Of a stretch of 32,000 nucleotides of DNA, positions 3,260 through 27,701 are shown in pieces. The DNA is from an uncultured Candidatus Saccharibacteria bacterium (GTDB lineage: Bacteria > Patescibacteriota > UBA1384 > XYA2-FULL-43-10 > 1-14-0-10-43-13): contig CAZIYE010000001.1 in assembly GCA_964543385.1 (NCBI GenBank), forward strand, positions 390,001 through 422,000. Direction: 5' to 3'. The notes under the pieces are model-generated. The model ran no database searches. It was not told the origin of the DNA and saw only the letters and a list, made by a program, of their open reading frames with translations. Both the position numbers and the translations under genes were made by a program. Each line of letters opens with the position of its first letter. Position 1 is the first letter of the stretch.

Positions 3260-4171
3260 ATGGCTTCAACACAAGAATTCAGACGCCGAATCAAATCGGT
3301 CAATAATACAAAACAAATTACCAAAGCAATGGAAATGATCGCCTCTATTAAGATGCAAAAGGCAACTCGTTTTGCTGCAATGGCTAGAAGCTACACCCAA
3401 AACGCTTGGAATATGCTTTTAAAGCTTGCAACAATTGTACTGCCAGAGGCACATCCCCTATTGAATCCAAGAGAAGTAAGGAGAACAGCGGTAGTCTTAT
3501 TGACTTCAGATCGTGGACTTTGTGGTTCATATAATTCGGAAGTACTGAAAAAATTTGTTGCATTCGAAAAGGAACAATGCGCCTGCAATCAAAAAAGTTG
3601 CGGTGAATTTGTAGGAAATTGTGATGTAATTACTATCGGTAAAAAGGGCGCGGAATTCACCAAAAGATATAAAACAGGCAAACTAATCGCTGAATTCCCC
3701 GGCTTCGAAAATAATATTCAGGCAGAAGATGTTATGCCTATCTCCAAAATGACAAGCGATGAATACCTAGCCGGCAAATATGACCGAGTAGTAGTTATTT
3801 ACTCTCATTTTGAATCATCACTAAAACAAATACCGGTCGTCAAACAGATTTTACCTATATCAAACGACCATATTGATAAACCAGAAATATGGACACAAAC
3901 CGATGAGGCTGAGACCGAATACAAATTTGAGCCAAGCCCAGATGACGTTCTAGAAGGAATACTTAAGCAATTTCTGAGAGTTCAAATATACGGCGCAATC
4001 CTAGAGGCCAATGCCTCAGAACATTCTGCCCGTATGGTAGCAATGAAAAATGCTACTGACAGCGCTGGTGATCTGATAGATGAGCTCAAACTGGTATACA
4101 ACGCTGTCCGCCAAGGCTCAATCACTCGTGAAATTGCTGAGATATCTGGCGCAGCGGAAGCAATGAAGTAG
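3260..4171 (+). CDS. atpG: F-type ATP synthase F1 subunit gamma
   Basis: 303 aa. N-terminus IKSVNNTKQITKAMEMIASIKMQKA and C-terminus NASEHSARMVAMKNATDSAGDLIDELKLVYNAVRQGSITREIAEI are typical gamma helices. Confidence 0.93.
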   Translation: MASTQEFRRRIKSVNNTKQITKAMEMIASIKMQKATRFAAMARSYTQNAWNMLLKLATIVLPEAHPLLNPREVRRTAVVLLTSDRGLCGSYNSEVLKKFVAFEKEQCACNQKSCGEFVGNCDVITIGKKGAEFTKRYKTGKLIAEFPGFENNIQAEDVMPISKMTSDEYLAGKYDRVVVIYSHFESSLKQIPVVKQILPISNDHIDKPEIWTQTDEAETEYKFEPSPDDVLEGILKQFLRVQIYGAILEANASEHSARMVAMKNATDSAGDLIDELKLVYNAVRQGSITREIAEISGAAEAMK

Positions 4172-4379
4172 CACATTTAAAAAAACCAGGCCGCCACTTA
4201 CTTGATTTCGGCGGCAGCCTGGAGATGGGAAGGCGGGACCATTCCTCGTCTTCATCGGAGACGAACTCGTGTTCGTCGCTACGGCCGAGGGGCCGTGTCT
4301 GTTGCCCTTGCTTCGGGCAATCGGCGGTATCCATGCAGGAGCACGGACACAGATCATCATCGCGGCCACAGTCGGCCAT
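4122..4379 (-). CDS. Hypothetical small acidic Cys-rich protein (85 aa as drawn; 3' end uncertain)
   Basis: ATG at 4379 lies 7 nt after AAGGGGGA. Product is MADCGRDDDLCPCSCMDTADCP... Hand-counted GC1/GC2/GC3 over the first 57 codons is about 67/51/72%, a coding-like pattern. Caveat: no in-frame stop occurs before the terminator at 4179-4222, and the frame only closes 50 nt inside antisense atpG. Confidence 0.4.
   Translation of the reverse strand: MADCGRDDDLCPCSCMDTADCPKQGQQTRPLGRSDEHEFVSDEDEEWSRLPISRLPPKSSKWRPGFFKCATSLLPLRQISQQFHE
4179..4222 (-). terminator. Intrinsic terminator active on the minus strand only
   Basis: Minus strand reads CCAGGCTGCCGCC-(14 nt loop)-GGCGGCCTGG followed by T7. 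On the plus strand the A7 run precedes the stem, so atp transcripts should read through. Confidence 0.6.
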
Positions 4380-4426
4380 AGTGGTGTCCCCCTTTTCGAA
4401 ACGTTGTCCGGAAACCGGATGGGAGA
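4186..4426. other. GC-rich compositional island 1, in the atpG-atpD spacer
   Basis: Abrupt shift from AT-rich backbone to about 60% GC sequence. All-frame ORFs appear here because stop codons are depleted. Confidence 0.8.
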
Positions 4427-4427
4427 T

Positions 4428-4456
4428 ACAATAAAATAAATTAGTTAATATGTCAA
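4428..4456 (-). promoter_or_regulatory. Sigma70-like promoter for the island-1 ORF
   Basis: Minus strand has TTGACA (4456-4451), a 17-nt spacer and TATTGT (4433-4428). It lies in AT-rich DNA directly next to the atpD SD. AT-rich DNA produces such hexamers by chance. Confidence 0.35.
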
Positions 4457-4467
4457 TAAGGAGATAG

Positions 4468-5832
4468 ATGCAAACAGGAAAAATCACACAGGTTATCGGC
4501 GCAGTTATTGATGCCAAATTTGAGGATAAACTTCCAAAAATTTATGATGCGTTGGAATGTAAATTAAACGATAAGCGTCTCGTCTTTGAAGTTCAGCAAC
4601 ACTTAGATGACAAAACCGTCCGAGCTGTAGCAATGAGCTCGACAGACGGCTTACAACGAGGAACAGAACTAGTCAACACGGAAAAGCCGATCTCTGTTCC
4701 TGTGGGGGCAGAATCACTAGGCCGAATGTTTAATGTTATCGGCGAACCGATTGATGGCAAAGAAGCACCAAAAAATAAGACTTTTTATCCTATTCATAGA
4801 CCATCTCCTGAATTCTCGGAGCAAAACACCAAGACCGAGATTTTCGAAACAGGAATTAAAGTTATCGATCTGATCGCTCCAATCACAAAAGGTGGTAAAG
4901 TAGGCCTCTTTGGCGGTGCTGGTGTTGGCAAAACCGTTTTAATCACTGAACTAATTCGCAATATTGCCTCCGAACATTCAGGCACATCAGTTTTCGCCGG
5001 CGTAGGAGAAAGAACTCGTGAAGGTAATGATCTCTATAACGAGATGAAAGAGTCAGGTGTTTTAGATAAGACTGCTCTCGTTTTTGGTCAGATGAATGAA
5101 CCCCCTGGAGCTCGTATGCGTGTTGCTCTGTCAGGACTTGCCCAAGCTGAATATTTCCGAGACGAGGGCAAAGACGTGCTTTTATTTATTGACAATATCT
5201 TTCGTTTTACCCAAGCTGGTTCAGAAGTATCTACTCTCCTCGGCCGTATGCCTTCAGCAGTAGGTTATCAGCCTACCCTTGCTGAGGAAATGGGCAACCT
5301 TCAGGAAAGAATTACCTCTACAAAGAAGGGTTCTATCACCTCCGTTCAAGCTGTCTATGTACCTGCTGATGATCTAACTGATCCAGCACCAGCCACTACC
5401 TTTGCCCACTTGGATTCAACTATCGTGCTAGAGAGAAGTCTGGCTGAACTAGGTATTTATCCTGCTGTTGATCCCCTTTCTTCTACGTCAGCTATTCTTG
5501 ACCCTAACGTTGTTGGTATCGAGCACTATACGGTCGCTCGTGAAGTTCAGAGGTTACTACAAAGATATAAAGATCTTCAAGACATCATCGCAATTCTTGG
5601 CATGGAAGAGCTCTCCGATGATGATAAACTTACAGTCTCACGAGCACGAAAAATTCAACGTTTCTTATCACAGCCTTTCCATGTTGCCGAAGTATTCTCC
5701 GGCATCCCTGGTGTCTACGTGACGTTAAAAGACACGATTGCCGGCTTTAAAGAAATCATCGACGGTAAGCATGATAACAAAGCAGAAACAGAGTTTTATA
5801 TGAAAGGAAATATCTCAGAAGTAGGAAAATAG
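4468..5832 (+). CDS. atpD: F-type ATP synthase F1 subunit beta
   Basis: 454 aa. Walker A GGAGVGKT. Conserved blocks [21 protein letters not shown] and [18 protein letters not shown] is AAGGAG. Confidence 0.98.
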
Positions 5833-27405: not shown

Positions 27406-27419
27406 ATAAATGGTATAAA
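27391..27419 (+). promoter_or_regulatory. Candidate sigma70-like promoter for the island-3 ORF
   Basis: TTGATC (27391-27396), a 17-nt spacer and TATAAA (27414-27419), in AT-rich DNA at the 5' end of mnmA. Confidence 0.35.
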
Positions 27420-27434
27420 TATGCTTATCATTTT

Positions 27435-27459
27435 CGATATCCTAACGGATATCGTTTTT
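27435..27459 (+). promoter_or_regulatory. Perfect 8-bp inverted repeat plus T5 in the predicted leader (attenuator hairpin or operator)
   Basis: CGATATCC-TAAC-GGATATCG followed by TTTTT, lying between the candidate -10 and the SD GGAGGA (27475-27480). Confidence 0.5.
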
Positions 27460-27465
27460 GGTAAA

Positions 27466-27693
27466 ACCCCTATTGGAGGATGTTCGATGATTAACCCCTG
27501 CCTGCGCGCCCAATTGCGGCGCGACGTCGCCCGTCGCTGGAAGGCGACCACGGAAGCACTCCGTAACTCTGAATGCCAGAACTGCGTTCTCGCAGACAGC
27601 GGATCGTGCGCTCCGGCCAACTGTCCGGGCCATCAGGCCCAATCGCGGCACTAGCCGCACTGCGTCCCGCCACTCCCCTCAAAGGAGTGGCGG
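27466..27693. other. GC-rich compositional island 3, in the mnmA-folD spacer
   Basis: Hand count of the ORF gives about 65% GC, against about 37% in a folD sample line. Confidence 0.8.
27487..27654 (+). CDS. Hypothetical 55-aa basic Cys-rich protein
   Basis: GGAGGA lies 6 nt before the ATG. Product is MINPCLRAQLRRDVARRWKATTEALRNSECQNCVLADSGSCAPANCPGHQAQSRH. Hand-counted GC3 is about 73%. TAG stop lies 12 nt before a strong terminator. Confidence 0.5.
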   Translation: MINPCLRAQLRRDVARRWKATTEALRNSECQNCVLADSGSCAPANCPGHQAQSRH

Positions 27694-27701
27694 TTCTTTT
27701 T
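27667..27701 (+). terminator. Intrinsic terminator active on the plus strand only
   Basis: CCGCCACTCC-CCTCAAA-GGAGTGGCGG followed by TTCTTTTT. The T-tract overlaps the folD stop codon on the opposite strand. Confidence 0.8.

Follow-up and report, generated by a model that had tools for sequence, protein, structure and literature searches.

Three unrelated antisense small-gene cassettes at operon junctions of a Candidatus Saccharibacteria genome: candidate noncontiguous operons in an ultra-small bacterium

Noncontiguous operons, in which a gene on the opposite strand lies between co-directional genes of one operon, were reportedly described by Saenz-Lahoya et al. in 2019. According to the atlas of such operons in Staphylococcus aureus, overlapping transcripts that repress one another are expected, operons of energy metabolism are among the published cases, and membership is not computationally predictable and needs transcript evidence (Iturbe et al. 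2024, PMC11034616). The commonest geometry of bacterial bidirectional promoters is the 18-bp class, in which 18 bp separate the start sites (Warman et al., bioRxiv 10.1101/2020.01.31.928960). The locus considered here is a stretch of 32,000 nucleotides, referred to as the window, from an uncultured Candidatus Saccharibacteria bacterium of the candidate phyla radiation (CPR) (GenBank assembly GCA_964543385.1, contig CAZIYE010000001.1; here G000:C1:390001-422000). Three of its spacers are conspicuous in length and composition: those between atpG and atpD (atpG|atpD), atpD and atpC (atpD|atpC), and folD and mnmA (folD|mnmA). Each holds a small antisense island, called island 1 (I1), island 2 (I2) and island 3 (I3) respectively. 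Few bacterial gene orders are as conserved as that of the ATP synthase operon, and here its gamma-beta-epsilon core is split twice by backward mini-genes.

On balance, I1, I2 and I3 are probably self-contained small-gene cassettes at hot-spot junctions of ancestral operons, with a backward layout that is real and an orientation that is near-random. A small open reading frame (ORF) with a Shine-Dalgarno sequence (SD) runs opposite in strand to both neighbours in all three alike (Table 1), as the first-pass annotation of this DNA had stated. The make-up of a cassette is promoter, leader, SD and small ORF, with a one-way terminator in I1 and I3. A coding-type periodicity of GC content, lowest at the second codon position, is present in the frames of all three island ORFs and absent from the competing frames. 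The island products have no match in Pfam, PHROG or PADLOC, and the island RNAs have none in Rfam, for which the window yields one tRNA only. The three islands are mutually unrelated. By gene arrangement, atpG-I1-atpD-I2-atpC and folD-I3-mnmA are candidate noncontiguous operons.

The atpG-atpD-atpC and folD-mnmA regions were compared across approximately 30 members of the family and order. All three junctions are insertion hot spots across this CPR family. Between atpG and atpD, relatives have 15 to 681 nt. Genes of PF05635 (23S rRNA intervening-sequence protein) lie there in sense orientation in at least six genomes; the other occupants are a GIY-YIG gene, likewise sense (G007), an antisense membrane ORF of 162 aa that carries its own terminator (G002), and I1 itself (G008 and the Logan contig L036). 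At atpD|atpC, where the genes overlap in some relatives and are up to 477 nt apart in others, there are sense PF05635 and GIY-YIG genes, small sense two-helix ORFs (G013, G016, G017) and a sense 115-aa ORF (G008). The folD|mnmA junction, which ranges from overlapping genes to a spacer of about 1300 nt, contains a sense GIY-YIG gene (G010), sense PIG-L-like genes (family f4) and antisense small membrane or Cys-rich ORFs (G008, G019). Sense inserts at these junctions have no sense-strand terminators, and several antisense inserts have an own-strand terminator by the upstream host gene. In G001, which belongs to the same genus as the host genome G000, I1 and I2 are absent, and the atpG|atpD (57 nt) and atpD|atpC (about 15 nt) junctions are compact. 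These two compact junctions weaken the earlier suggestion that the islands would be hard to delete without damage to essential operons.

The PF05635 and GIY-YIG mini-genes, which many family members have at the junctions, are always sense, AT-rich and without a terminator (loci L002, L003, L009, L010, L018, L020, L021, L022, L023 and L055), and some PF05635 copies are frameshifted (G034, G024). Another insert of 570 nt is found between atpA and atpG in G019 (G019:C1:254725-255294), where G000 has 16 nt; its longest ORF, of 127 aa, is antisense. The atpD match of G017 carries one in-frame TAA (L002, G017:C1:120460-121818), and the atpD matches of G010 are in two pieces about 75 nt apart (L023, G010:C5). 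An insertion, a frameshift or an assembly problem may account for these two anomalies.

The history of I1 is the clearest of the three. Apart from G000, its peptide occurs solely in G008 (L024) and L036, always at atpG|atpD and always antisense, and pattern scans of genome and metagenome contigs gave no further relatives. The ratio of the proportions of nonsynonymous and synonymous differences (pN/pS) lies at 0.40-0.56 overall and at 0.17-0.37 in the Cys-rich N-terminus, the first 22 codons, and I1 therefore codes for protein. The flanking genes of L036 and G008 are close (83% nucleotide identity in atpG and 87% in atpD), and G000 is 68-78% identical to both. In the island these identities are reversed: G000 and L036 share 86% (100% in the terminator), as against 73% for L036 and G008. 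Between G000 and L036, pS is 0.25 in I1 versus 0.71 in atpD and 0.81 in atpG, and the switch in similarity among the three falls at the edges of I1. Since island and flanks disagree, and the switch lies at the island edges, lateral exchange of I1 has evidently taken place, with slot and orientation unchanged. By these alignments I1 is an older protein-coding cassette, laterally exchanged between distant lineages at one slot. Both marks of a laterally exchanged flexible islet, slot polymorphism and discordant phylogeny, are found for I1; for I2 and I3 only presence/absence or a difference in cargo was seen.

I1 substitutes for the whole spacer, from the atpG stop codon to the atpD start codon and including the atpD SD, with no target-site duplication relative to the empty site in G001. 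Its terminator stem is retained in all three carriers, with one compensatory pair. The symmetric -10 region is also retained (TATAAT in L036; TATAAT/TATTAT in G008), and a minus-strand TTGACA lies against the atpD SD in all three. In G000, the promoter scan found TTGACA (4456..4451), 17 nt and TATTGT (4433..4428) on the minus strand, with 10 of 12 matches, and TTGTCC (4404-4409), 17 nt and TACAAT (4427-4432) on the plus strand. The two -10 hexamers are offset by one base, position 2 of each pairing with position 6 of the other, which is the geometry of the 18-bp class; this geometry is absent from I2 and I3, whose promoters were assigned by reading. With this pair of promoters, I1 probably transcribes its own gene to the left and restarts atpD to the right.

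That the I1 terminator is one-directional in sequence was borne out, in that T7 follows the hairpin on the minus strand only; on the host strand the stem is weaker, A7 precedes it and no T-run follows. The island-strand RNA folds with a z of -4.9 against shuffled sequences, and the host strand with a z of -2.7. The product of I1 opens with MADCGRDDDLCPCSCMDTADCP... In G008 and L036 the ORF ends with TAG after ...SDEDEE (45 aa), where G000 has TGG. The frame runs 50 nt antisense into atpG because this stop codon was apparently lost (TAG to TGG). The overlap itself, which the first-pass annotation had pointed out, is confirmed by the stop at 4124-4122 and is, as read from the relatives, a mutational by-product and not design. 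If transcription ends at the T-run, the I1 mRNA of G000 is likely to be non-stop.

At folD|mnmA, a control module is shared by G000 and G001. The I3 candidate promoter (TTGATC at 27391-96, 17 nt, TG-n-TATAAA at 27414-19) was found by reading and has an extended -10; between the predicted transcription start and the SD is a leader hairpin (27435-27454) with T5, a U-run in the RNA. In G001 (L050, G001:C70, locus about 2170-2400) there is a scaffold gap of 10 N within the 3' end of folD. To the right of this gap the -10 region, the leader hairpin with its U-run and the SD are conserved, and what the module precedes on the island strand is an AT-rich ORF unlike that of I3 (MMRKKRILKSSL...). This indicates that the module predates the split of G000 and G001 and that the cargo was replaced. 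The leader (27435-27460), an 8-bp hairpin and then UUUUU, is attenuator-like and likewise conserved in G001. The I3 terminator stem is followed by TTCTTTTT on the plus strand only. The I3 promoter had been placed at the 5' end of mnmA; it is probably intergenic instead, with mnmA starting at TTG 27354. This start is preferred to TTG 27405 because the model NF001138 aligns from residue 24 and because conservation with G001 opens at TTG-GAC-AAA.

It is plausible that the I3 frame is coding. No homologue of its product was found in a word-indexed search of 5.8 billion proteins or in a six-frame search of 162 genomes of the class, which gave chance-level matches only. Three phmmer matches among 1.84 billion representatives were rejected, being long HYR-type repeat proteins with scores summed from weak repeats. 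G008 and G019 also have antisense small genes at this junction, with unrelated cargo and with promoters (TTGACA-type -35) adjoining the mnmA start. The G019 gene (L058, C1 ~233000-233300) is a 65-aa Cys-rich ORF (MKDEPEKKPFACTCPD...HICGGFRHIPDSVEE) without a family match. Its promoter, TTGACA-17-TATTGT, is interleaved with a host-strand TTGACC-17-TATGAT ahead of mnmA.

The least canonical of the three is I2. One-way T-tract terminators had been proposed for all three islands; a GC-rich hairpin with a U-tract is present in I1 and I3, but the I2 hairpin has a fold z of only -1.1, has a broken U-tract and was missed by both terminator scans. It had likewise been claimed that candidate promoters abut host starts, and this holds for I1, where the minus-strand -35 box adjoins the atpD SD, and for I2 by reading only, with a -35 box that touches the atpC ATG (6197). 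The candidate promoters of I2 and I3 are not listed by the scan; both have A, not T, at position 6 of the -10 box. The I2 RNA does not fold unusually (z -0.7), and its product has no homologue in 5.8 billion proteins (word-indexed search) or in 161 other genomes of the class (six-frame search, chance-level matches only). Because I2 has no good terminator, its RNA may extend antisense into the 3' end of atpD. The promoter scan found no host-strand promoter for atpC, and for this reason atpC probably depends on read-through across I2. Sense membrane ORFs of 62-73 aa with two helices occupy atpD|atpC in G013, G016 and G017 (L015, L013 and L002). Those of G013 and G016 resemble each other, both ending in PRKK(K). 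The architecture of these ORFs is I2-like but their orientation opposite, and by BLASTP I2 shows no similarity to them.

All three islands are antisense, as the first-pass annotation had pointed out. To see whether this exceeds chance, genes were called genome-wide with two codon models, with rRNA and tRNA masked, and GC-rich units between co-directional native genes were counted, leaving out I1-I3. There are 21 co-oriented and 13 antisense units (38% antisense), and 15 and 10 (40%) in a strict subset, for which a unit needed either a G019 homologue or a length of at least 100 aa together with a good codon score. Of native genes placed in the same way, 520 are co-oriented and 43 antisense (7.6% antisense). 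GC-rich units are antisense about five times as often as native genes (Fisher p ~2e-6), yet they are not preferentially antisense, and the probability that three of three would be antisense is 0.056-0.064, up to 0.125. The shared orientation of the islands is within chance and is not a class property. Because GC-rich cassettes in G000 are almost randomly oriented, it reflects the history of each insertion and not a rule. As to relatives, a survey of which had been suggested as a check, I1 has the same orientation in its three carriers, and inserts at the junctions are both sense and antisense.

A rule by which GC-rich inserts are antisense and AT-rich inserts sense, a striking pattern at the three junctions of relatives, was also tried and rejected. 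The inserts of G019 and G002 are not GC-rich for their own genomes (about 45% GC), and genome-wide only 38-40% of GC-rich units are antisense. Two co-oriented GC-rich cassettes (G000:C1:355472-356116 and C1:94035-94720) lie in junctions that are 10-55 nt in G019. Both are preceded by a bidirectional terminator of the upstream gene and have a consensus-like promoter of their own. The cassette between serS and hpf ends in a terminator, after which comes a promoter for hpf.

How host and cassette transcription might coexist can be outlined. The U-tract of I1 and I3 is on the cassette strand only, and the terminator scan found no host-strand terminator in any of the three spacers; host polymerases would read through the islands. 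The untranslated spacer of 300 nt would cause no polarity, because the genome is without Rho: no Rho gene was found in G000, the only matches being sub-threshold and to atpD and atpA. The symmetric bidirectional promoter of I1 could restart atpD. Cassette promoters would fire against the flow of host transcription, and the host read-through RNA would be complementary to the cassette mRNAs, leading to collision or to cleavage by RNase III, the gene for which (rnc) is at C1:44381-45034. A genome that has RNase III but not Rho makes both read-through and the cleavage of sense/antisense duplexes plausible. The expression of the cassettes would then be inversely coupled to transcription of the operon. 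Predicted cassette transcripts, from promoter to terminator, begin and end inside the spacers, I2 excepted, and sense/antisense pairing would therefore be confined to island sequence and not reach the coding regions of the atp genes, folD or mnmA. The first-pass annotation had expected RNA pairs overlapping the ATP synthase and tRNA-modification genes; for I1 and I3 the predicted transcripts do not bear this out, and I2 is a possible exception.

Several points weigh against the reading of the islands as coding cassettes in near-random orientation. The coding signal of I3 is weak, with a codon score near zero, and its sequence folds unusually well on both strands (z -5.0 and -4.5); it might represent a structured RNA. 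In four genomes of three genera (G000, G001, G008, G019), the mnmA start has beside it an antisense unit with a promoter, the cargo being unrelated, and this recurrence is the strongest hint of more than random orientation at that slot. Strand calls are error-prone for GC-rich ORFs below about 80 aa, the caller having mis-stranded I1, which was corrected by homology. Some of the counted GC-rich units are clustered and hence not independent. Promoters, terminators and read-through are all predicted from sequence. A more tentative and rather doubtful extension is that these are CPR 'expression sockets', in which, within essential operons, a conserved antisense promoter-leader and one-way terminator hold unrelated small-protein genes swapped by lateral exchange, and which are gated by transcription of the host operon. 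Low activity of the ATP-synthase or Fe-S/tRNA-thiolation operons would then be the main occasion for making cargo. Compatible with such sockets are the conservation of the I1 ends, the different cargo behind the I3 module in G000 and G001, and the recurrence at mnmA in four genomes of three genera.

Other explanations attribute a purpose or a filter to the orientation. It is unlikely that the islands are dedicated antisense regulators, with cassette transcripts or convergent transcription that tune the stoichiometry of ATP synthase (atpD and atpC versus the upstream genes) and mnmA, the ORFs being secondary. Such a role would fit the constancy of I1, which keeps one slot, one orientation, its terminator and its promoter in three lineages, and the antisense units by mnmA in G000, G001, G008 and G019; RNase III is present, and the RNAs of I1 and I3 are unusually well folded (z about -5). 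However, the junctions are empty or sense-filled in most family members and G001, of the same genus, is without I1 and I2. The I1 ORF is under protein-level purifying selection, the predicted cassette transcripts have no host coding overlap, and I2 and I3 have no relatives. That the islands are selfish or addictive elements, type I toxin-like genes (I2 especially) whose mRNA is neutralised by the host transcript and which are shielded by essential genes, is also improbable. There is no toxin, PHROG or PADLOC family match, no genomic repeat of these single-copy islands, no target-site duplication and no recombinase; the products of I1 and I3 are soluble Cys-rich peptides and not membrane toxins, and the sister species has empty sites. 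These points outweigh the 69-aa two-helix hydrophobic protein with its basic tail encoded by I2, the full complementarity of the I2 mRNA to the atpD-atpC read-through RNA, and the lateral spread of I1, which fills the whole spacer including the atpD SD.

A polarity filter can also be envisaged, whereby inserts arrive in either orientation but only antisense ones survive within operons, since a sense terminator would cut off essential downstream genes. It accounts for the absence of sense-strand terminators from the sense inserts of relatives (PF05635, GIY-YIG and small membrane ORFs) and for the own-strand terminators of antisense inserts by the upstream host gene in G000, L036, G002 and G019. 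Even so, little credence can be given to it, as a co-oriented GC-rich unit with its own terminator (C1:355605-355934) occupies the serS|hpf junction, which measures 10-14 nt in G019, and this counter-example rules out a strict filter. In addition, own-strand terminators are about equally common behind co-oriented and antisense GC-rich units, and of the six GC-rich units whose slots are tight in G019, four are co-oriented. It is very improbable that the islands are non-functional debris or assembly artefacts: three independent assemblies carry I1 in the same setting, G001 retains the I3 control module, a promoter, an SD, an ATG and a frame-specific GC pattern are present in every island, and SD and stop codons of the host are interlocked with the edges of the islands. 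The orphan status of I2 and I3, the lost stop codon of I1 in G000 and the near-zero coding score of I3 are what debris would be expected to show. Unrelated cassettes inserted at hot-spot junctions remain the preferred explanation.

The host genome G000 is 0.90 Mb in four contigs with 38% GC, and host genes were identified from NCBIfam model matches. For atpC the ATG at 6197 is the likely start; its longest ORF begins with TTG 6164, and most relatives align from about residue 12. An SD is visible neither there nor at the TTG 27354 start of mnmA. Upstream of folD are NifU/IscU and NifS/IscS genes (NCBIfam). A gene for transfer-messenger RNA is at C2:32381-32768. The features of the window are listed in Table 1.

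Table 1. Islands, their predicted parts and the host genes around them, in window positions (GC1/2/3, GC content at the three codon positions)
Feature	Position	Strand	Remarks
I1, antisense cassette	4172-4467	-	Entire atpG|atpD spacer; 296 nt, 53% GC
I1 ORF	4379..4239	-	46 codons, Cys-rich, acidic; ATG 4379; MADCGR..CPCSC..DTADCP..SDEDEE; TGG 4241..4239
I1 intrinsic terminator	4179-4222	-	12-bp stem 4222..4186 and T7 4185..4179; predicted fold -25.4 kcal/mol, z -2.7
I1 frame extension	4122-4238	-	Through the terminator and 50 nt into atpG; stop at 4124-4122; past the predicted transcript end
I1 bidirectional promoter (predicted)	4404-4456	both	Two -10 boxes, 5-bp overlap
I2, antisense cassette	5833-6196	-	atpD|atpC spacer; 364 nt, ~50% GC
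I2 ORF	6118..5909	-	69 aa, two hydrophobic helices, Lys-rich tail; SD GGGGGGTGA; GC1/2/3 0.51/0.39/0.56
I2 weak hairpin	5825-5882	-	Hairpin 5882..5837 and AUUCCUAUUUUC; imperfect; overlaps atpD stop codon; not a canonical terminator
I2 candidate promoter	6168-6196	-	TTGAAA 6196..6191, 17 nt, TG-n-TATAAA 6173..6168; by reading; extended -10
I3, antisense cassette	27355-27699	+	folD|mnmA spacer; 345 nt; 27406-27699 (294 nt, 55% GC) if mnmA extends to 27405
I3 control module	27391-27481	+	Candidate promoter, leader hairpin, SD GGAGGA 27476-27481; conserved in G001
I3 ORF	27487-27654	+	55 aa, basic, 5 Cys; orphan, coding status uncertain
I3 intrinsic terminator	27667-27702	+	10-bp stem 27667-27693 and TTCTTTTTA; predicted fold -21.9 kcal/mol, z -3.9; T-run overlaps folD stop codon
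atpA	1696-3243		NCBIfam
atpG (F1 gamma)	3260-4171	+	TIGR01146, 277.7 bits, above cut-off; upstream of I1
atpD (F1 beta)	4468-5832	+	TIGR01039, 806 bits
atpC (F1 epsilon)	6197-6616	+	TIGR01216, 110 bits
mnmA	26251-27354	-	Longest ORF to 27405; NCBIfam NF001138, alignment from residue 24
folD	27700-28542	-	NCBIfam; last-but-one gene of the phd-like/iscS/iscU/folD/mnmA row

New here are the lateral exchange of I1, its bidirectional promoter and its lost stop codon, and the conserved I3 module with swapped cargo. By the alignments, I1 has moved between distantly related ultra-small bacteria into the same junction and has brought a putative two-way promoter with it. As their orientation is within chance, to take the islands for a designed regulatory layer would be unwarranted. 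Should transcript data bear out read-through and antisense overlap, CPR bacteria would have here their first described noncontiguous operons, along with a simple natural example of a streamlined 0.9-Mb genome that fits small genes into essential operons and leaves the operons unbroken.

Among described elements, the PF05635 and GIY-YIG passengers of relatives use the same atpG|atpD, atpD|atpC and folD|mnmA junctions. They differ from I1-I3 in being AT-rich and always sense, have no terminator, ride the operon transcript and are unrelated in sequence. Miniature inverted-repeat transposable elements and other dispersed repeats were considered and rejected: the islands are single-copy, with only chance matches of 13-18 nt genome-wide, and at I1, compared with G001, there is no target duplication. 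I2 resembles the type I toxin-antitoxin systems hok/sok and tisB/istR in its small hydrophobic peptide and in an mRNA that would be fully complementary to another transcript. However, it has two helices and not one, no dedicated antisense small RNA and no family match, in keeping with the Pfam, PHROG, PADLOC and Rfam results given above, and the islands are not placed among these systems.

Phage morons and replacement-type flexible islets are also comparable. They too are units of promoter, gene and terminator in fixed slots, swapped between relatives and unlike the backbone in composition; the exchange of I1 and the replacement of I3 cargo behind a conserved control module are of this sort. 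The islands differ in their setting, which is a CPR chromosome of 0.9 Mb, housekeeping operons and no phage context, and in their cargo of 45-70 aa. The I1 promoter shares with the 18-bp class its -10 overlap, the pairing of positions 2 and 6 and predicted starts about 18 bp apart; it differs from members of the class in being known by sequence match only, and I2 and I3 are without this geometry. To our knowledge, the specificity of sigma factors in CPR bacteria is unstudied.

In layout the islands match noncontiguous operons. A gene on the opposite strand lies between co-directional operon genes at each of the three sites, and in relatives the same junctions are compact and co-directional. 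The antisense genes differ here in being tiny cassettes, orphan or lineage-specific and foreign in composition, that are apparently bounded by the spacers. One of these cassettes, I1, differs further in that it would supply its own promoter for restarting the operon that it interrupts.

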